Below are positions 1,973 through 22,561 of a stretch of 64,000 bases of DNA, in pieces. A program made the position numbers and the translations under genes. This stretch comes from Acidimicrobiia bacterium (GTDB lineage: Bacteria > Actinomycetota > Acidimicrobiia > Spongiisociales > UBA5794), in contig CBDCGU010000003.1 in NCBI GenBank assembly GCA_965216945.1, forward strand, positions 3,526,653 to 3,590,652, in the 5' to 3' direction. A model generated the notes under the pieces. That model was not told where the DNA came from. It made no database searches and saw nothing but the letters and a program-made list of their open reading frames with translations. The first letter of the stretch is position 1. Each line of letters opens with the position of its first letter.

Positions 1973-3295
1973 TCACCCATCCTCATGCACCGTCCTTCCC
2001 GTTGGTTCCGCTCCCATGGCTGTTCCTGATCCGCCCATGCGAGCACCGGACCTTCTGGCCCAGACCCCCGCGAGGAGGGCAGCCATCAAGGAGACCGCAG
2101 CGATGCAGCCAAAGGCCGGCGCGTAGTCGTTTGTTGCGTCGACTATGAGACCAAACCCGGGCGGTCCGATGGTGTGGCCGGCGAGGAATCCGAGGACGAC
2201 GATCCCAGAGGCGCGTCCGGCCGCCGAGCTTTCTGCCGTGGCAATGGTGGCGAGCATGCCGACGGCCATCCACGATTGCACGCTGGCGCCGGCGAGCCCC
2301 GCTCCGATCCAGATCCAGCGCCCACCCCAGGATTCGGCGCCCCACATGACGCCGCAGGCGAGCATCGAGACGAGTGACAATGCTGCGATCGCCCTCCCAT
2401 AGTGGCTGAGCCGTTCGCTGAAGTGGCCCCAAGTGATTCTTCCCAAGAACCCGACGCCTCCCATGACCGCTGCCGCAGCGCCGGCGAGAGCGACACTGAA
2501 CCCAACCCGCTCCTCGGCATACAGCGGGAGATACGTGAGCAGCGCGCCCCCTACGACTCCCATCGACAAGCCGAGCGACGCTAGCCACCACGCATCTGTC
2601 GGCACCCGGCTCATCGGGGCGGCCTTCGCCCACGAGGCACCCTCGTCCGCTGGGAGGAACACGAGGGTCGAGGCGGCGAGGAGCCAGGCCGCGAGCGCAC
2701 CCAAGGCAAACGTCGGTCGCCAACCAATGCTGGCTGCCCCGACCGGGACGACGAGACCGGCGAGGACTACCCCTAGCTGGACCGCCGATTGCTTGATTCC
2801 GGTCAGCATGCCGCGTTTACCCGGTGGCACGTTGTGGGCGATCACCTTGTTCGTGCTGGGGTTGGCGACCGATTGGGCGACGCCTGCGACAGTCGAAGCC
2901 ACAATCAGCAAGGGGTAGCTGATACCCAGCGCAATGCCGATGAGCCCGATTCCGGCGAGCACGAAGAGCACCACGAGACTCCGCTTGCCGCCGATCCGAT
3001 CGGCCAGCCAGCCGCCGACAGGCGACAGGACGGCACCGGTCAGGGAGTACGCGGAGACGAGATATCCGATCTGCGCTCGGTTGAGCGATAGTTCACCGAT
3101 GAGCAGTGGGGAGAGCACACCGAACGCCACACGGCCGAACACACCGAGCACCATGGCGGCCGACAGGGTGAATGCGAGTCCGGCGCGAGTCAAGAGCGGA
3201 GAGGCCTCTAGGTGTGCCAGTTCAGTGGCCCCGTGACCCTCCGCGATGGCCCGCGCCTGGGCAGCGCCCGTTGACGGATCTTCGGCCGGGCTCAC
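1973..3295 (-). CDS. MFS transporter
   Basis: 440-aa ORF with about 12 hydrophobic segments; Gly/Ala-rich helix pattern typical of the major facilitator superfamily. Confidence 0.75.
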   Translation of the reverse strand: MSPAEDPSTGAAQARAIAEGHGATELAHLEASPLLTRAGLAFTLSAAMVLGVFGRVAFGVLSPLLIGELSLNRAQIGYLVSAYSLTGAVLSPVGGWLADRIGGKRSLVVLFVLAGIGLIGIALGISYPLLIVASTVAGVAQSVANPSTNKVIAHNVPPGKRGMLTGIKQSAVQLGVVLAGLVVPVGAASIGWRPTFALGALAAWLLAASTLVFLPADEGASWAKAAPMSRVPTDAWWLASLGLSMGVVGGALLTYLPLYAEERVGFSVALAGAAAAVMGGVGFLGRITWGHFSERLSHYGRAIAALSLVSMLACGVMWGAESWGGRWIWIGAGLAGASVQSWMAVGMLATIATAESSAAGRASGIVVLGFLAGHTIGPPGFGLIVDATNDYAPAFGCIAAVSLMAALLAGVWARRSGARMGGSGTAMGAEPTGRTVHEDG

Positions 3296-13995: not shown

Positions 13996-15288
13996 CTACC
14001 GGTTGACCCCCTCGTGGAGGCGGGCGACGGCTTCGAGCTCGGCGGCAACGTCGAACCTGGTGCGCTCTTCGGCAATCGCCGCCGCCATGCGCCGAGCCGC
14101 TTCGGCGTACGTACGGTCGGCGAGGAGGCGGTCCACCGCCCGGCCGATCTTCGCCGGTGAGGCAGTGGGGGAGAGCCGCACCCCTGCTCCGTGGTGGACG
14201 ACCCGGGCTGCGATGTCGTTCTGGTCCCGTCCCATGGGGATGCACAGCAACGGGACACCGGCGGCGAGCGCTTTCAGCGTCGTGCCGTGCCCGCAGTGAG
14301 TGATCACCAGCGCGGCCCGTTCGAGGATGGGTGTGTGGGGTGCCGAGGCGATCACATGAACGTTGCGGCGTGCCGGCACCTCGGCCGGATCGAGCATCTG
14401 GCCCAGCGTGACCACCGCCTGCACGGGTCTCTGCGCCAAGGCCGCAACCACCCGGCGCAGCAGGGGGCCCTGGTTCTGGTAGGTGGAACTGAACGCCACC
14501 AAGACGACCGGATCCTCGTTGTCCTCGGGCCACGGCGGCGCCCACGATTCAGCCCACGACGGGTCGTCGAGGATGGGCCCGAAGTAGTGGGCCTTCGCCG
14601 GGACGGTTGGTGATGCAAAGTCGAAGGTGGGGCTGGTGAAGACGAGGATGCGGTCGGTGACGAGGACCTGGTCCCAGAACGCAGCGAGCGGCGCGAGGCC
14701 GTGGACGGCTCGCGCCGCGTTCAGCGTGGGGAGGGCCCGATCGAAGATCCGGTTGGCCAAGGCCAGCATGGCGGTGTTCCGGGTGCGGCCGAGCGCGGTC
14801 TTGGGTGGTGCGAAGCCCGGTCCGATGGCGGGCGCCCCCTTGGTGGGCAGCATCCAGATGCTGGGCATCATCGGGGCGGTCGGGAGCCGGGCTGCCTCGG
14901 CGGCGATGATGGCGCCGAAGATCATGAAGTCGGGCACCACCACGTCGGGTCGCACCGTTTCGATCGCCTCGGCGGCGTCGGCGGCGAACAGTGTCGCGGG
15001 CCCGGCTACGAATAGGTCGCGGACCCGGCGCAGCATGGCGAGCGGACTGCGGAGCTCCCAGTCCTTGATGATGTCCTGGTCCGGGTCGAGCGCTGTGCGA
15101 TGCGGGGCCCGCTGCCACGCCGAGAACGTGCAGCCGGCGGCGAGGGCATCGTCTTCGACCGTCGGGTCGGCCAGGACATGGACCCGGTGCCCGCGATCGA
15201 GAAGCCGCCGAGCCACGCCGAGCTGGGGCGGAATCGTGCCGCCGCCCTCCCACATGGGGAACAGGAACTGAAGTTTGTGGGCCGTCAT
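13996..15288 (-). CDS. GT1 family glycosyltransferase (MGT/UDP-glycosyltransferase-like)
   Basis: C-terminal HCGHGTTLKALAAGVPLLCIPMGRDQ UDPGT-like nucleotide-sugar binding motif. Confidence 0.8.
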   Translation of the reverse strand: MTAHKLQFLFPMWEGGGTIPPQLGVARRLLDRGHRVHVLADPTVEDDALAAGCTFSAWQRAPHRTALDPDQDIIKDWELRSPLAMLRRVRDLFVAGPATLFAADAAEAIETVRPDVVVPDFMIFGAIIAAEAARLPTAPMMPSIWMLPTKGAPAIGPGFAPPKTALGRTRNTAMLALANRIFDRALPTLNAARAVHGLAPLAAFWDQVLVTDRILVFTSPTFDFASPTVPAKAHYFGPILDDPSWAESWAPPWPEDNEDPVVLVAFSSTYQNQGPLLRRVVAALAQRPVQAVVTLGQMLDPAEVPARRNVHVIASAPHTPILERAALVITHCGHGTTLKALAAGVPLLCIPMGRDQNDIAARVVHHGAGVRLSPTASPAKIGRAVDRLLADRTYAEAARRMAAAIAEERTRFDVAAELEAVARLHEGVNR

Positions 15289-15872
15289 CGATCGCTCCCC
15301 TCATCGCTGGTAGTGGTGCAGATGACCCCGTCGACGAGGCGGCGGATGATCCGCTCCGTGACGGTGGCGGTGAGATCGAAGTCGCGGCGCAGCAGCTTCC
15401 ACTGCATGACATCGGTGGCGGCGTACAGGGCCATGATCAGTCCTTCCCTATCCGGGGAGCCGGGGGCGGGCAGCCAGGGAGCGAAGACGTGCTCGATCCA
15501 CCCGCGGTGTGCGGAGCGGCCCCGCTTGAGCAAGTGATCCATGGCGTCGACACGGCCCTCGAGCTCCAGGGTGCGGACGTTGGCGTCGCCCATCCGCTCG
15601 TACTGATCGACCAGCCTGGATATGGCTCCGTCCACGTCGCCCGGTTCGACCAGCGTCTCGGCTTCGCCTTCGGGCCCCTTCCACTCGGCGGCCGCCATCA
15701 GCAGCTCGTCCTTGGTGCCGAACTGCCGGTACACCGTCTGCCGCGACACGCCGGCCCGTTCGGCGACATCCGCCAGCGTCACCTCGTCGTAGTGGCGGGT
15801 GAGCCAGAGCTCCGTCATGGCCTCAAGGATCCGCTCTCGGGTCTGGTCGACGGCGTCCCGGCGGGCCCGCAT
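15285..15872 (-). CDS. TetR/AcrR family transcriptional regulator
   Basis: HTH (TLADVAERAGVSRQTVYRQFGTKDEL); stop overlaps the GT start (ATGA). Confidence 0.8.
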   Translation of the reverse strand: MRARRDAVDQTRERILEAMTELWLTRHYDEVTLADVAERAGVSRQTVYRQFGTKDELLMAAAEWKGPEGEAETLVEPGDVDGAISRLVDQYERMGDANVRTLELEGRVDAMDHLLKRGRSAHRGWIEHVFAPWLPAPGSPDREGLIMALYAATDVMQWKLLRRDFDLTATVTERIIRRLVDGVICTTTSDEGSDR

Positions 15873-15952
15873 CTCGTAGCGTCTCGTCGATTCGGTGTGT
15901 GCGGAAGAAGACGTTGCGTTCCTTTTCATATGACAAAGAGTTGCACGAATAT

Positions 15953-15964
15953 ATTGACGTGTCA
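15953..15964. promoter_or_regulatory. inverted repeat TTGAC-GT-GTCAA within an unusually AT-rich divergent intergenic region (about 15900-15990) between the TetR and Memo-like genes
   Basis: Read directly; candidate TetR operator/promoter. Confidence 0.3.
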
Positions 15965-16004
15965 AGCCGTATCACGAAAAAGTGCGAGGCGGTAGCGTTG
16001 GGAC

Positions 16005-16793
16005 GTGAGCGCAATCCGACCCCCGGCGGTTGCGGGGAGCTTCTATCCCGCCGATGCGGGCCGCCTGGCCGGGGAGGTGCGGGCGTTGCTCGACGCCGCC
16101 ACCCCGCCGGTCGTGGAGCTCGGCGTGCGGATGGTGATCGTGCCGCACGCCGGCTACGTGTACTCGGGGCCGGTGGCCGCCACCGCCTACGCGTTTCTCG
16201 AAGGGCGTGTGGGTGGGGATGTCCTGCTGCTCGGCCCTGCACACTTCGCCCGCTTCACCGGTCTGGCGATCTCGGATGCGGTTGCGTTCCGTACGCCGCT
16301 CGGCGACGTCGCAGTCAGCGATGGCTTACGCCAACGGTCGGGCGACGTGGCGTCGGTCCGCCCCCAACCCCACCTCCGCGAGCACAGTCTGGAGGTGCAA
16401 CTGCCGTTCCTCCAGATCATTGCGCCCGAGAGCGCCTGCCTGCCCGTGCTCACCGGAGACGACGATCCCGAGACGGCGTCACAGATCATCGAGAGGGCCG
16501 TGGCGGATCCGGCGCTGACCGTCGTGGTGAGCACCGATCTCTCCCACTACCTGGACCACGACACCGCAACACGTCTGGACAAGGAGACGGCGCAGGCGAT
16601 CGTGGCGCTGGACGAGGCCGGAGTGCCGTCGGGCAGCGCCTGCGGGCGAACCGCGGTGCGGGGGGCGATGCGGGCGGCGGCCCGGCTCGGATGGCGGTGT
16701 GCGCTGCTGGATCGGCGCACCTCGGGCGAGACCGCCGGCGACCCTGCCCGGGTCGTCGGCTACGGAGCGTTTGCGCTCGGAGCCGGGGGCTGA
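16005..16793 (+). CDS. AmmeMemoRadiSam system protein B (MEMO1-like)
   Basis: VAGSFYP, IVPHAGYVYSG, HSLEVQLPFL and DLSHY motifs of the Memo family; GTG start. Confidence 0.8.
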   Translation: MSAIRPPAVAGSFYPADAGRLAGEVRALLDAATPPVVELGVRMVIVPHAGYVYSGPVAATAYAFLEGRVGGDVLLLGPAHFARFTGLAISDAVAFRTPLGDVAVSDGLRQRSGDVASVRPQPHLREHSLEVQLPFLQIIAPESACLPVLTGDDDPETASQIIERAVADPALTVVVSTDLSHYLDHDTATRLDKETAQAIVALDEAGVPSGSACGRTAVRGAMRAAARLGWRCALLDRRTSGETAGDPARVVGYGAFALGAGG

Positions 16794-17881
16794 CCACGCA
16801 GCCGGCTGCGCCTGATCCGCACAGGTCGGCGTCGTGATCCCCATCCACCCGGGCTTGCCTCGAAGACCCCGGCGCAGCGTTCTCCGCATGCGACGCAGTC
16901 ACCGTCTTCGTCCAACCCCCAACCCCCGAGCTCGTAGCCGCGGCGGGCGATCAGCACGTGGCCGCATGCATGGCAGCACGTCGCTTGCGCCGCGGGGTCG
17001 AACACATTGCCGACATAGGCGTGGCGGACGCCGTTGTCGCGAGCGATCTGCCGGGCCCGGAGCAACGTCGCCGCCGGCGTTGGTGGCGGGTCGCGCAACT
17101 TGAAGTCGGGATGGAAGGCCGTGAAGTGGTGGGGCACCGATGGTCCGAGATGCTCCACCACCCAGCGGGTCATCGTATCGAGCTCGGTGTTCGAGTCGTT
17201 GCGATCCGGAATGAGGAGCGTCGTGATCTCCAACCAGACCTCGGTCTCGTGCCGCACGTACTCGAGCGTGTCGAGTACGGGTGCCAGGGACCCGGCGCAG
17301 ACCCGGTGGTAGAACTCGTCGCTGAAGGCCTTGAGGTCGATGTTGACGGCGTCCATCACCGAGTAGAACTCGGCCCGAGGGGCGGGGTGGACATACCCGC
17401 TGGTCACCGCCACGGTGCGCACGCCCTCCTCGCGGCAGGCTGCAGCGACGTCGATGGCGTACTCGTGGAACACGATGGGGTCGTTGTAGGTGAAGGCGAC
17501 ACTGCGACAGCCGAGCTCCGCCGCGGTTCGAGCGATCTCCTGAGGAGATGCCGAATCGGCGAGCACGTCGTGGTCCCGCGCCTTGGAGATGTCCCAGTTC
17601 TGGCAGAAGCGACACGCCAGGTTGCACCCGGCAGTGCCAAAGGACAGCACCGACGTCCCCGGCAGGAAGTGGTTGAGCGGCTTCTTCTCGATGGGGTCGA
17701 TGCAGAATCCGCTGGAGCGGCCATATGTGGTGAGCACGATCTCACCATCCTGGCTGGCCCGGACGTAACACAGCCCGCGCTGGCCCTCGCGCAGCTTGCA
17801 CTCACGGGGACACAGGTCGCACTGCACCCGACCGTCGCCGAGGCCATGCCAGTACTTGGTTGCGGCCAAACCGGCGGTCAT
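16760..17881 (-). CDS. AmmeMemoRadiSam system radical SAM enzyme
   Basis: CNLACRFCQNW (CxxxCxxC) radical SAM cluster motif plus C-terminal CxxC pairs; 3' end overlaps the convergent Memo gene by about 34 nt. Confidence 0.8.
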   Translation of the reverse strand: MTAGLAATKYWHGLGDGRVQCDLCPRECKLREGQRGLCYVRASQDGEIVLTTYGRSSGFCIDPIEKKPLNHFLPGTSVLSFGTAGCNLACRFCQNWDISKARDHDVLADSASPQEIARTAAELGCRSVAFTYNDPIVFHEYAIDVAAACREEGVRTVAVTSGYVHPAPRAEFYSVMDAVNIDLKAFSDEFYHRVCAGSLAPVLDTLEYVRHETEVWLEITTLLIPDRNDSNTELDTMTRWVVEHLGPSVPHHFTAFHPDFKLRDPPPTPAATLLRARQIARDNGVRHAYVGNVFDPAAQATCCHACGHVLIARRGYELGGWGLDEDGDCVACGERCAGVFEASPGGWGSRRRPVRIRRSRLRGQPPAPSANAP

Positions 17882-17981: not shown

Positions 17982-18974
17982 TCATCCGTGTGAGGGGGTC
18001 CTGTCGGTGATGATCTCGAACGCCGCCCGATTCTCTGTCGCGAGTTCCCTGGGAGCTTGTCCCTTGCGCTCGATGCGGACACGACACGACGCAAGCTTGC
18101 TGTTGTGACACGTCTTGACGCCCCCGGGCGGGTTCCGGTAGCTCAGGACCGCAAAGGTGGCGGCTTGTCCCTCGAATCGTGCCGAGATGCCGATGTCGCG
18201 GTCACGGGTTGCAGCCGACCACTCGTAGAAGCCGAATGAACCCTTCGCTCGAACACCCTGGTGTAGTGAGTTCAATGCATATTCGTGACCTCGATAACGG
18301 AGAACCGCCAGAGTCAGACGCGGGGTCCAGACCGGCCCCAGCTTGAGCTGTGCGGTGGCGCACTCGAGGAAAGCGTCGGGCTCGCCGTCGAAACCGGCGA
18401 CCTGGCCCCACGCATAACGATCGGTGTGGCGCACGCCCCAGTTGTGGTTCTGACTGCCGATCCAGCCTTCGACGTCGTGCCGATCGTCGTCGATCGACAG
18501 CGCGCCGTCGAAGACGGCATTGGGCATCGCCACCAGAGCCTTGGCCTTGGGGAACCCTCCGTCGTACATCGTTTCGGGTAGCAGAAGCAACGGCGGCTCG
18601 TCACCGGCCCATCTGAGCGACCAACGCAGTTCTCGTCCGGCGGACCGGGCGCCTCCATCCACCTCGCCATCCCGCAACCACGAAGAACCGATCCGAAGGT
18701 CCAGCCCGGACCTCGAAAACGAGCACTCGCGCAACGGGTGGGCCTGGTAGACGGAGACCGATTCCGCTGCTTCGCCGTCGAACCATATTCCCCACAGTTC
18801 TCCTTGCGCCTGCCCGGGATCGCCCTTGGGCGCAAAGATCGTGTACCGGATCCAAAAGGCCAGCGGACGCTGGGGATGATTGGCACGGAGGAACCAACTC
18901 TCGTAGTGGCCACCTGTGGCGCCTTCTGGCATACGGAGTGCGTTCCATCGCTCCCGATCGACTCCCTTGCTCAT
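17982..18974 (-). CDS. hypothetical protein (330 aa), Trp/aromatic-rich, possible lipocalin-like/CrtC-like fold
   Basis: Long ORF with coding-like composition; no motif I can name confidently. Confidence 0.45.
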   Translation of the reverse strand: MSKGVDRERWNALRMPEGATGGHYESWFLRANHPQRPLAFWIRYTIFAPKGDPGQAQGELWGIWFDGEAAESVSVYQAHPLRECSFSRSGLDLRIGSSWLRDGEVDGGARSAGRELRWSLRWAGDEPPLLLLPETMYDGGFPKAKALVAMPNAVFDGALSIDDDRHDVEGWIGSQNHNWGVRHTDRYAWGQVAGFDGEPDAFLECATAQLKLGPVWTPRLTLAVLRYRGHEYALNSLHQGVRAKGSFGFYEWSAATRDRDIGISARFEGQAATFAVLSYRNPPGGVKTCHNSKLASCRVRIERKGQAPRELATENRAAFEIITDRTPSHG

Positions 18975-19587: not shown

Positions 19588-20406
19588 TCACGACCAGGGT
19601 GTCACCGGCCGCTCCAACAACTCGCCGTCGACCTCGATGTCGACCCGCTCGTTGTAGAAGGCGATGAGATCCTTGATCTTCGGGTTCTCCGGTATGGGAT
19701 CCGGGTAGCTCCACGCGACATTGCGGCCCGGCCGACCTCCATCGCCCAGCGACCAGAACCTGGCCACGCCCTTGTACGGGCAGCGGGTGACGAGATCCGA
19801 CGGCTCGAGCAGGTCGAGGTTCACATCCTGCGGCGGCAGGTAGTAGCGCACGGGCAGCGTGGTCTCGAACAGAAGGTGGGGCCGATCCGATGCGGCCAGC
19901 GCCTCGCCTTCGAAGCGCACGACCACACGGCGAGTGGATGCGATGACATCCACCCTGTGTTGCGGGTCCCTGGCATGCTCGAAGACCTCCTCCGCCTCTT
20001 CGAACCAGGCATCCATCTGGTCCCAATCAAAGGTCAGATGATCGGCGAGCGCCGCAGTGGTGCCGGCCGGGTTCGAATAGGCCCATGCCGCGTACTCCCT
20101 GACCTCGTCACCAACCCTGGCGTGCCACCACGTGCGCTCCCCGATACTCCCGGCCCGAGTGAGGACATCGGTTGCGACGTCCTCGAACGGGAAGAAGTAG
20201 CCGGGGAGGAGAGGTTTGCCGGAACCGGGTCGAACCGGCTTGCCGTATGCCACGTGCAGCATGGCTCGCTTGGAGTCTGCGACGGTTCGTTCCCCCAGAA
20301 CGGTGCGCACCCAGCGCGGTGAGGGCTCGACGCGAACCGGGGGAGCGAAGTCGGCCACGTCCGGGGTCCACGTCGCATCGTCGCCGATGACGCCTTCAGT
20401 GTCCAC
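19588..20406 (-). CDS. DUF427 domain protein (two tandem DUF427 repeats)
   Basis: CPYKGVARFWS and FYNERVDIEVDG motifs; paralog of 21764-22561. Confidence 0.65.
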   Translation of the reverse strand: MDTEGVIGDDATWTPDVADFAPPVRVEPSPRWVRTVLGERTVADSKRAMLHVAYGKPVRPGSGKPLLPGYFFPFEDVATDVLTRAGSIGERTWWHARVGDEVREYAAWAYSNPAGTTAALADHLTFDWDQMDAWFEEAEEVFEHARDPQHRVDVIASTRRVVVRFEGEALAASDRPHLLFETTLPVRYYLPPQDVNLDLLEPSDLVTRCPYKGVARFWSLGDGGRPGRNVAWSYPDPIPENPKIKDLIAFYNERVDIEVDGELLERPVTPWS

Positions 20407-20932: not shown

Positions 20933-21433
20933 TCATCGGTCTGATCCGGGTGGCGTTCCTCTGACGATCGAACCGACCAGGGACGCCAGTGTCGTGCGCA
21001 GGTGTTCGAGATCGCCGGAACCCACGACGTCCACCAGATCCTTCTCGATCGAAGCGAATGCCCGCATCGTCGCCTCGTGTGACTGCAGGCCCCTTTCTGC
21101 CCACGTGATCAGTTTGGCGCGGCCGTCGCTCGGATCGGCTTTGCGCACGAAATAGCCCCGCTCGACCAGGTCATCGACGAGTTCGCCCATCGCCTGCTTC
21201 GACATGCCAGCAGCTGCCGCCAGGTCGGTGAGACGAATCCCTTCTGCGGGCACGTTGATGAAGACGGCATTGTGGGCGCGGCGCACGTCATCGAAGCCCG
21301 CCTCGGCCATGAGCTCCAGATGTCGCGTCTCCCACCAGCGTTTGAGGACATCGAGCAGCGCGGGCAAGGGGATCGAGTCGGGGGAACCGCTCAGCATTCC
21401 CGCTGAAGCAGCCGTGATCAATGAATCGGTCAT
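20933..21433 (-). CDS. MarR family transcriptional regulator
   Basis: Winged-HTH region (LTDLAAAAGMSKQAMGELVDDLVERGYFVRKADPSDGRAKLI). Confidence 0.8.
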   Translation of the reverse strand: MTDSLITAASAGMLSGSPDSIPLPALLDVLKRWWETRHLELMAEAGFDDVRRAHNAVFINVPAEGIRLTDLAAAAGMSKQAMGELVDDLVERGYFVRKADPSDGRAKLITWAERGLQSHEATMRAFASIEKDLVDVVGSGDLEHLRTTLASLVGSIVRGTPPGSDR

Positions 21434-21763
21434 GGTGACTGCCGGATCATAGTGCACCTTGACGGACCAGTCAGGTAGCCGTATTATCTAGTCAGGAAAC
21501 CAGACGAATGCGAGGAGAGGGGTGATGCACGGCGGTGTGAATGTTCGCTGGAACCGGCCGCCGCGGACGGCGGCTGGTCCAAGCCGCAGGCGCCAGTCTC
21601 GGGCGAGGCGGGGCCCGTCGCGCCTACGCATGAGGGTCGTTCTGGTCGTATTACACCGCACGTTGCCGTTTGGGGAGCTCTTCGTCCTCGGCCCACCGGC
21701 ATCCGCATATCGGGCGATCGGCCGCACCGGTGCGGAGCGAGCCATGGAATCGGAACAGCGGCG

Positions 21764-22561
21764 GTGAAGGAGCTCGTGGTGGCCGATGAGGCGAAGTCGC
21801 CGACCGGGATGCGCCCGTGGTGGCCGGCCGTCGAGTCGACGGCGCGCTGGGTCCGGGTGCGTCTGGGTGACGTGGTGATTGCAGACAGCAGGAGAGCGCA
21901 GCTGCTCATCGAGTACGGGGCGCCACCGGCGTTGCCGACATATTTCTTCCCGTTGGACGACGTCGACACGGATGCGCTGGTGGATCGCAGCACACTCGAC
22001 GATGGTTCGATCCGCTGGTCCGTGCAGGCGGGTGATCGACGGGTGATCGATGGGGCTTGGACGCACCCAGCGGCCGATGGGCGCTTGGCAGGCATCGCCG
22101 GGATGGTTTCGTTCACTTGGACCGATCAATTGCAGTGGCTGGAGGAAGAGGAAGTTCTGTTTGCGCATGCCCGAGATCCGCACAAGCGGGTGGACGTCGC
22201 GCCCAGCTCGCGCCACGTACGAGTGCTGGTCGCCGGCGTCGAGGTCGCCAACAGCCGTCGACCGTTGCTGCTGTTCGAGACCATGCTCCCGACTCGCTTC
22301 TACCTCCCGCCGGACGATGTGCAGATGGAGATGCTGGTACCGAGTGCCACCGTCACCCAATGCCCTTACAAGGGCACCGCCACCTACTGGTCCGTGACGG
22401 TGGACGGAGTCGTGCACGACGACCTGGCTTGGTCCTATCGGGATCCCGTCCCCGAGAACCCTCGGATCTGCGATCTGATTTGCTTCTACAACGAGTCTGT
22501 CGAGATGGTCGTCGATGGCGAGGCTCTGAGCCGTCCGGTGACTCCCTGGTCGTCCCCATAG
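21764..22561 (+). CDS. DUF427 domain protein (paralog)
   Basis: CPYKGTATYWS and FYNESVEMVVDG motifs; divergent from MarR. Confidence 0.65.
   Translation: MKELVVADEAKSPTGMRPWWPAVESTARWVRVRLGDVVIADSRRAQLLIEYGAPPALPTYFFPLDDVDTDALVDRSTLDDGSIRWSVQAGDRRVIDGAWTHPAADGRLAGIAGMVSFTWTDQLQWLEEEEVLFAHARDPHKRVDVAPSSRHVRVLVAGVEVANSRRPLLLFETMLPTRFYLPPDDVQMEMLVPSATVTQCPYKGTATYWSVTVDGVVHDDLAWSYRDPVPENPRICDLICFYNESVEMVVDGEALSRPVTPWSSP

Follow-up and report, generated by a model that had tools for sequence, protein, structure and literature searches.

The AmmeMemoRadiSam pair and its described relatives

Conservation of Memo and AMMECR1 extends from bacteria to humans, both proteins have been linked to human disease, and we know of no established biochemical function for either of them. 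The main contextual clue to their role is a bacterial three-gene system, AmmeMemoRadiSam, whose families were defined as co-occurring: TIGR04335 for the AMMECR1-like protein A (Pfam PF01871), TIGR04336 for the Memo-like protein B, and TIGR04337 for a radical SAM enzyme. Our literature search retrieved no experimental paper on the function of this system, only annotation mentions and two predictions from comparative genomics. The nearest relative of the radical SAM enzyme that has been characterised, and also the nearest with a solved structure, is the pyruvate formate-lyase activating enzyme PflA (PDB 3C8F), and protein B can be compared with the structures of human MEMO1 (PDB 3BCZ, 7KQ8, 7L5C).

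The stretch of DNA analysed here (64 kb, in the following the window) leaves this general picture unchanged. It contains adjoining, full-length B and radical SAM genes that score far above the family cutoffs and, unlike the described system, no A gene anywhere in the 64 kb. We consider it very likely that the two genes form an intact and functional core of the system, arranged as is typical of an Acidimicrobiia lineage, and that the absence of an AMMECR1 neighbour is ordinary. A preliminary description had recognised both genes by their motifs and had named TIGR04335 and TIGR04336 as the models to compare them with; the assignments hold, and the numbering has to be shifted by one, to TIGR04336 for protein B and TIGR04337 for the radical SAM enzyme.

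The B gene (16005-16793, plus strand, GTG start) encodes 262 residues, of which residues 5-257 align with positions 1-269 of the 270 positions of TIGR04336 at 231.8 bits (cutoff 26). Pfam Memo (PF01875) reaches 157 bits in the profile search, the Memo motifs quoted in the preliminary description are present, and a third-position GC content of 0.84 gives a strong coding signal. The AlphaFold model (pLDDT 94) shares the fold of human MEMO1 with TM scores of 0.85-0.87, and the metal-site motifs PHAGY, GPxH and DxSH of the human protein align with those of protein B. In this alignment, H48, H80, D178 and H181 correspond to MEMO1 H49, H81, D189 and H192, and C213 appears to be the counterpart of C244. 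The Memo fold and the His/His/Asp/His/Cys metal site are both present. These five residues, together with E126, H127 and the segment V250-Y253, are invariant in an alignment of 44 sequences, and their conservation in 120 homologs is 97% or higher. The differences from MEMO1 lie in sequence (about 25% identity), in length (297 residues in the human protein) and in genetic context, as protein B is linked to the radical SAM enzyme, which to our knowledge eukaryotes do not possess.

The radical SAM gene (16760-17881, minus strand, ATG start) encodes 373 residues with a similarly strong coding signal (third-position GC 0.83). Residues 8-356 cover all 349 positions of TIGR04337 at 624.3 bits (cutoff 220), which places the protein with the CNLACRFCQNW motif in the AmmeMemoRadiSam clade as had been proposed, and the Pfam Radical_SAM domain (PF04055) scores 68.8 bits. 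In 81 sequences, the Cx3Cx2C cluster motif C86/C90/C93 (CNLACRFC) is invariant, two further cysteine groups (C21/24/28/38 and C303/306/329/332) are conserved, and across phyla 145 of 349 positions reach an identity of at least 95%. The cluster motif and the radical SAM core are common to this enzyme and PflA, but the score on the PflA model TIGR02493 (55.4 bits) falls below the equivalog cutoff of 231.75, the protein is much longer than the 245 residues of PflA, and the invariant N-terminal Cx2Cx3Cx9C and C-terminal Cx2C...Cx2C sites have no counterpart in PflA. The neighbourhood of the gene contains no gene for a glycyl radical enzyme.

Convergent ends, control region and flanking genes

The preliminary description had placed the two genes on opposite strands with overlapping 3' ends, and both reading frames and the overlap of 34 nt (16760-16793, both strands) can indeed be read directly from the sequence. 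The TAG stop codon of the radical SAM gene (16760-16762, minus strand) is antisense to the last base of the Gly252 codon and the TA of the Tyr253 codon of the Memo gene, and the length of the overlap is explained by this coincidence of the stop codon with the antisense of an invariant Tyr codon. The closest relatives (L081/L082; protein B 58% identical) have an identical 34-nt overlap and the same radical SAM tail, ...PSANAP*. Within the Acidimicrobiia clade, convergent 3' ends of the two genes either overlap by 4-48 nt or stand 6-55 nt apart, whereas in other phyla the genes are mostly co-directional, divergent or present as B-A fusions. A terminator scan found no terminator-like site between the two convergent genes.

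On its other side, the Memo gene is divergent from a gene for a TetR-family regulator (minus strand, 15285-15965 as the longest reading frame with a TTG start; Pfam TetR_N 49.4 bits), which overlaps by 4 nt with a glycosyltransferase gene of the MGT/EryCIII-like families (13996-15288). The TetR protein probably starts downstream of the TTG, at Met13 (15929) or Met32 (15872), and the spacer therefore would comprise 75-132 nt rather than 39 nt. The spacer had been noted as unusually AT-rich, and indeed the 60-mer at 15922-15981 has with 0.37 the lowest GC content of all 60-mers in the window. This control region contains two near-palindromes (15920-15939, and TTGAC-GT-GTCAA at 15954-15965), and the sequence TTGACGTGTCAA can be read directly within it. 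A sigma-70-like site at 15975-15948 on the minus strand, which is the TetR strand, was the only consensus-type site in the promoter scan. On the plus strand, the TANNNT-type sequence TAGCGT (15993-15998) is located 6 nt upstream of the Memo GTG and is a candidate for a -10 element; Actinobacteria frequently use promoters of this type and mRNAs without a leader, and the position of the element would imply a leaderless Memo mRNA. The order GCG(G/A)TAGCGT, 6 nt, start codon is common to the window and to L081/L082, despite the different upstream genes.

Could the pair have been captured into a lineage-specific accessory module that is controlled by the TetR protein and includes the glycosyltransferase, for example to detoxify or modify a small molecule? 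TetR regulators that are encoded divergently across a short spacer often act on the adjacent gene, the spacer of at most 132 nt harbours the most AT-rich 60-mer and both near-palindromes, and the overlap of the TetR gene with that of a macrolide-type glycosyltransferase would agree with such a module. However, in 88 related loci neither of the two genes has a homolog close to the pair, and the -10-like element is shared with relatives in which a ferritin-like gene lies upstream instead, which indicates that Memo brings its own promoter. Moreover, the extreme conservation of the radical SAM enzyme argues for a housekeeping-type target. We therefore regard a TetR-controlled module as unlikely, and by the comparison of gene neighbourhoods the TetR gene is a neighbour without conserved membership in the system.

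Much the same holds for the other surroundings of the core pair. The nearest minus-strand gene upstream of the radical SAM gene (17982-18974, minus strand) had been described as encoding an unrelated hypothetical protein of 330 residues, which agrees with its exclusively sub-threshold matches (Tocopherol_cycl, 25.3 bits against 26.6; Rv3169 family, 27 against 150) and with the lack of a homolog near the pair in the 88 loci. The neighbouring S8 protease, 455-residue protein, VOC, DUF427 and MarR genes do not recur beside the pair in related loci either. An all-against-all clustering of neighbouring reading frames, which was swamped by shadow frames due to the high GC content, gave no convincing recurrent third partner, and an Rfam scan of the window gave no match. 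As to transcription, Memo probably would be expressed as a leaderless mRNA from the TAGCGT element just downstream of the AT-rich region that it shares with the divergent TetR-glycosyltransferase operon, and the radical SAM gene would be transcribed from the opposite strand, possibly jointly with the 330-residue gene; the two transcripts would necessarily overlap at their 3' ends.

Protein A in the window and in relatives

As had been stated before, only two of the three genes are present. Two profiles built from TIGR04335-verified seeds, and tblastn, were run against the six-frame translation of the whole 64-kb window, and neither an AMMECR1 gene nor a remnant of one was found in any frame (best profile E-values 0.44 and 0.076, best tblastn E-value 0.16). 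The A profile recovered 5 of 5 AMMECR1 genes that were independently annotated by Pfam and gave no false match in control loci, and a search of the window for the GC[IVLM]G motif matched off-frame reading frames only.

The preliminary description took the missing A gene for an exception, assuming that an AMMECR1 gene normally stands next to the pair. In this branch of the family that assumption does not hold. Of the 38 relatives whose flanks extend for 5 kb or more in both directions, which were taken from the best 80 radical SAM matches of more than 600 candidates and thus were not drawn at random from the family, 17 have B and the radical SAM gene without A, the commonest state, compared with 8 complete loci and 13 with the radical SAM gene alone. 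A missing A neighbour is therefore not an anomaly. In a neighbor-joining tree, the window falls into the Acidimicrobiia clade with its conserved convergent, tightly abutting layout of the two genes, and the nearest relatives (L081/L082, L085, L002) likewise have no A at the locus, so that both the overlap and the A-less state are typical of the lineage and not specific to this genome. Other relatives of the clade (L083/84, L086/87, L088, L006 and L065) share the convergent arrangement with abutting or overlapping 3' ends, and their proteins are 70-75% (radical SAM) and 49-55% (B) identical to those of the window, but they carry a divergent AMMECR1 gene for 175-195 residues upstream of B where the window has the TetR-glycosyltransferase operon. 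The same slot is taken by the ferritin-like gene in L081/82 and L002, by an ABC transporter gene in L085, and by unrelated genes in L004 and L025/27. Adjacency of A is the rule in the sister subclade around L083, and A-less loci may for this reason be a minority within the Acidimicrobiia, although they make up most of the cross-phylum sample. Judged from these loci, A is a facultative component at this place and, within the clade, lies divergently upstream of B when present.

Does the source organism have a protein A at all? There is about an even chance that an AMMECR1 gene is located elsewhere in the 4.16-Mb genome and acts in trans, which would make the system complete but dispersed. The definition of the three families as co-occurring speaks for such an arrangement, and a dispersal of components is evidently common, since A is not found within 5-10 kb of the radical SAM gene in 30 of the 38 relatives, nor B in 13 of them. 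In the clade of the window, however, every A found sits divergently upstream of B, and the different unrelated genes in this slot across A-less lineages look more like repeated loss than like repeated relocation. The search with a clade-type A protein bears on this in both directions: among the 120 matches listed, no singleton A protein came from the source contig at 60% identity or more, which counts against an A elsewhere, but for a vertically inherited A we would expect about 61% identity to the query, a value that coincides with the cutoff of this list, and contig assignments in this search describe only the representatives of 90%-identity clusters.

The other reading, to which we assign an appreciable but less than even probability, is that A was lost here and independently in several relatives, and that B and the radical SAM enzyme form a self-sufficient two-component variant to which A is accessory. 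The linkage of B to the radical SAM gene is much tighter than that of A (25 versus 8 of the 38 relatives), and A-less loci recur in the clade with differing replacement genes. Since no invariant residue is missing from either protein of the window, selection acts on both even with no A gene beside them. In favour counts further that the A proteins of this clade diverge from the curated TIGR04335 model (101.5 and 83.9 bits, cutoff 99). Against this reading, they are well conserved among each other (63-82% identity), a sign that A is of importance wherever it occurs. Two B genes on contigs of 955 kb and 856 kb, which had first been read as A-less, both turned out to have an adjacent A; that reading was rejected, and the loss of A is the weaker for it.

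Possible function of the core pair

What the comparison of loci adds to the known picture is that B and the radical SAM enzyme are a tightly linked core, that A is facultative at the locus and was replaced repeatedly within one clade, and that the radical SAM enzyme stands out by its extraordinary conservation. If lineages truly devoid of A are confirmed in complete genomes, they would be natural knock-outs in which the contribution of A can be tested. In terms of gene content and order, the pair is real but ordinary, a widespread enzyme system in the commonest arrangement among the relatives examined.

By analogy with the family, the radical SAM enzyme would bind a [4Fe-4S] cluster via C86/C90/C93 and use it to generate a 5'-deoxyadenosyl radical from S-adenosylmethionine, which then would abstract a hydrogen from the substrate. 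The two other invariant four-cysteine sites, N-terminal and C-terminal, may hold auxiliary metal centres. Protein B, with its His/His/Asp/His/Cys site, could act on the same substrate in a redox or ring-modifying step, or alternatively serve as a direct protein partner of the radical enzyme. As the radical SAM enzyme shows such strong conservation and no substrate gene accompanies the pair, the target probably is a universal cellular molecule, such as an RNA, a protein or a lipid, and not a product encoded at the locus.

A more specific possibility is that protein B itself is the substrate, with the radical SAM enzyme acting in the manner of PflA on a glycyl-radical-like site in the invariant C-terminal RVVGYG of B. 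PflA is after all the nearest characterised and solved relative, the segment VVGY is invariant in 43 of 43 diverse B proteins at a distance of 10 residues from the C-terminus and resembles the RVxGY of glycyl radical enzymes, and human MEMO1, which has no radical SAM partner, has a Ser at the position of the glycine, its C-terminal strand reading VSYAA where protein B reads VVGYG. Nevertheless, the Arg is found in only 27 of the 43 proteins, none of 170 B proteins matches the strict PROSITE pattern [STIV]-x-R-[IVT]-[CSA]-G-Y-x-[GACV], and the radical SAM enzyme scores far too low on the PflA model (55 against 232 bits). In addition, the metal site of protein B is complete and speaks for metal chemistry. 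With the pattern test and the structural model both weakening it, a glycyl radical in protein B is very improbable. In the model with pLDDT 94, the motif does not form the tip of a hairpin but is part of a regular beta-strand of 12 residues (250-261), which pairs with the strand 230-239.

Gene identities and linkage to AMMECR1

Two open reading frames with a strong coding signal were found where the preliminary description had placed them, at 16005-16793 on the forward strand (262 aa, GTG start) and at 16760-17881 on the reverse strand (373 aa, ATG start), and the third-position GC of both is high, as expected for real genes in 64% GC sequence. The first matches TIGR04336 with 231.8 bits (cutoff 26) and Pfam Memo with 157 bits, and the second aligns end to end with TIGR04337 at 624.3 bits (cutoff 220), with the pyruvate formate-lyase activase (PflA) model as second best at 55 bits, far under the cutoff of that model. 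Judged by these curated models, the assignments already proposed, Memo-like AmmeMemoRadiSam system protein B and the AmmeMemoRadiSam radical SAM enzyme (rSAM), are unambiguous; the earlier suggestion to compare the proteins with TIGR04335 and TIGR04336 had the family names right and the accession numbers wrong, as TIGR04335 describes the A protein, i.e. AMMECR1. The pair is a fairly divergent member of the known AmmeMemoRadiSam system.

It had been assumed that such a pair is normally accompanied by an adjacent AMMECR1 gene, and this is not the case in this part of the family. We scanned one genome per species and retained the best 80 of more than 600 candidate loci, with rSAM proteins 64-72% identical to that of the window, and counted neighbours in the 38 of these 80 that have at least 5 kb on either side of the rSAM gene. 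Among these 38 best-matching loci, B is nearby in 25 and A in 8; B without A, the state of the window, is the commonest arrangement (17/38) and is also found in the closest relatives, both genes are missing near rSAM in 13 loci, and A never occurs without B. B and rSAM thus form a tightly linked core with A as a loosely linked member, and a missing AMMECR1 neighbour is not unusual. Layouts vary widely, from co-directional and overlapping to divergent, convergent or fused genes, and none of the window's other neighbours recurs near the pair in any of the 88 loci examined. The B-A fusions (450-490 aa, B at the N-terminus) occur in several Proteobacteria (loci L034, 7489-8964; L043, 8517-9917; L074, 5398-6771; L063 and L075), and the L043 fusion matches both TIGR04336 and TIGR04335. 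In eight loci (L003, L004, L006, L025, L027, L032, L070 and L076; e.g. L032 11868-12881), a second, distinct PflA-like radical SAM reading frame of about 338 aa (CNLRCVFCQNYDIS) lies within about 6 kb of the rSAM gene.

AMMECR1 in the window and in its clade

That no AMMECR1 partner is nearby could be corroborated for all 64 kb. A profile was built from AMMECR1 genes that lie beside rSAM homologs in related loci and were confirmed against TIGR04335; in a six-frame search of the window with filters off, its best hit had E=0.44, a larger profile including the clade-specific A subtype reached E=0.076, and the best tblastn match (E=0.16) was on the wrong strand. As the profile recovered 5/5 independently Pfam-annotated AMMECR1 genes in loci L083-L088 (E 1e-44 to 1e-48) and gave no match in three loci where Pfam likewise has none, the window is without an A gene or a recognisable remnant of one.

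In a neighbour-joining tree of rSAM proteins, the window belongs to a clade of Acidimicrobiia whose members all have rSAM and B in convergent orientation. In a protein search with B, the closest match other than itself, that of L081/L082, is 58% identical, which marks the source as an isolated lineage. Several members of the clade (L083/84, L086/87, L088, L006 and L065) carry a 175-195-aa AMMECR1 gene in one and the same slot, divergent from B. In the closest relatives of the window, L081 and L082, which share its layout including the extent of the gene overlap, this slot is occupied by a ferritin-like gene, in L085 by an ABC transporter, and, as labelled from reading the translations, in L002 by a ferritin-like, in L004 by a dehydrogenase-like and in L025/L027 by a DegV-like gene. 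The AMMECR1 proteins of the clade form a subtype of their own, GVFVSLH...GPLRGC[IV]GS (L006 6372-6914, L065 2009-2728, L083 2996-3583). Clade-type A proteins score close to the TIGR04335 cutoff of 99 or under it (101.5 and 83.9 bits). A search by the name "system protein A" would overlook part of them, and several are publicly named only "AMMECR1 domain-containing protein".

Has A been lost, or is it encoded elsewhere in the genome? Where A is present in the clade it always takes the same position, and the genes found in its place differ between lineages, both of which favour repeated loss. On the other hand, the system is defined as a co-occurring triad, and A is well conserved where present (63-82% identity), both of which speak for a gene elsewhere. 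With the clade-type A of L083 as query, no A of the source genome is among the 120 matches listed, all at least 60% identical, but the identity expected for such a protein, about 61% by calibration on 15 relatives in which one contig carries both genes, coincides with the edge of this list, and attribution is via representatives of 90%-identity clusters only. Two B genes on contigs of 0.86-0.96 Mb do have A beside them. We regard loss and a location elsewhere as about equally probable. If the complete genome proves to be without any AMMECR1, the significance of the locus would increase modestly.

Protein features and possible function

Protein B is intact. The model (pLDDT 94) matches human MEMO1 with TM 0.85-0.87, ahead of class III extradiol dioxygenases, and H48, H80, E126, H127, D178, H181 and C213 are invariant in the alignment; H48 and H80, together with the DxSH motif of B, align with the metal ligands of MEMO1. 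The rSAM protein has the canonical C86/C90/C93 motif and two further conserved four-cysteine groups, an N-terminal Cx2Cx3Cx9C (C21/24/28/38) and a C-terminal Cx2C...Cx2C (C303/306/329/332). Across an alignment of 81 sequences from many phyla, 145 of its 349 positions reach 95% identity or more, which is unusually strong conservation for an enzyme whose function is uncharacterised. Its closest solved relative is PflA (E=3e-9).

This kinship raises the possibility that B itself carries a glycyl-radical-like site, as its C-terminus (...RVVGYGAF, with VVGYG at 16752-16772, Memo residues 250-256) resembles the glycyl radical enzyme motif RVxGY, and VVGY is invariant in 43/43 diverse B proteins. However, no B protein matches the strict PROSITE fingerprint, an arginine precedes VVGY in only 27 of the 43, and the model places the motif inside a long regular beta-strand and not at a hairpin tip, which makes such a role very improbable. 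In the B-A fusions, VVGYG is internal.

A 2019 paper reportedly linked Memo to nucleotide-base and isoprenoid modification. The cysteine motifs, the conservation and the PflA kinship of rSAM, together with the anatomy of B, suggest that rSAM would use the usual radical SAM chemistry to abstract hydrogen from a cellular substrate that is itself highly conserved, and that B may either act on this substrate or serve as partner of rSAM. An RNA base modification role has been predicted by comparative genomics for AMMECR1, the rSAM enzyme and a dioxygenase-like protein (PMC2034487), and PMC7159879 has "Memo-Ammecr1 systems" as a citation. The accessible literature offers this one prediction and this one citation, and no experimental function for the system.

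Gene ends and the upstream region

The 3' ends of the convergent genes overlap by 34 nt (16760-16793), as had been noted, and the overlap is fixed at this length in both the window and L081/L082 (L081 3820-3853). Seen from the Memo strand, the rSAM stop (TAG, 16760-16762; TAA in L081) is made up of the final base of the Gly252 codon and the TA of the codon for the invariant Memo Tyr253. The rSAM tail ...PSANAP*, identical in the window and L081, results from reading the conserved YGAFAL codons of Memo in antisense, and the family model ends before it. As the DNA is GC-rich, the antisense frame stays open up to the conserved tyrosine codon and stops there. The overlap is a by-product of this, and a regulatory explanation is not needed. 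Clade-wide, there are overlaps of 4, 4, 17, 20, 20, 34, 34 or 48 nt or gaps of 6-55 nt, and the convergent overlap is inherited, with a trivial sequence explanation. Due to the overlapping ends, the mRNAs of B and rSAM must overlap; a terminator scan found no terminator-like structure between the genes.

Upstream of Memo, on the opposite strand, a TetR-family gene (15285-15965) overlaps with its stop by 4 nt (15285-15288) the start of a macrolide/EryCIII-type glycosyltransferase gene (13996-15288, reverse strand), which suggests a translationally coupled operon of a kind known from antibiotic modification or self-resistance. The spacer to Memo is indeed unusually AT-rich, as the 60-mer from 15922 has the lowest GC of the whole window (0.37). 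Its stretch 15920-15981 contains two near-palindromes, TCCTTTTCATAT/ATATGACAAAGA and TTGAC-GT-GTCAA, and, on the TetR strand, the sole consensus-type promoter match of the region, and is read as a candidate promoter and operator of the TetR-glycosyltransferase operon. TetR may control Memo as well, but conservation gives this no support. The window (15993-16007) and L081/L082 (L081 ~3050-3067) have GCG(G/A)TAGCGT, 6 nt ahead of the start codon, in common, despite different upstream genes. TAGCGT matches the actinobacterial -10 pattern TANNNT; as a candidate -10 element, it is spaced such that transcription would begin on the start codon, so that the Memo mRNA is probably leaderless, which in turn supports GTG-16005 as the true start.

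On the other side, a 330-aa reading frame with matches below threshold only lies upstream of rSAM on the same strand. More distant neighbours are an S8 protease, a glyoxalase-fold gene, two DUF427 genes and a MarR gene; the two DUF427 genes are paralogous, encode tandem DUF427 domains (PF04248) and flank the MarR-family gene (19588-20406, reverse; 20933-21457, reverse; 21764-22561, forward).
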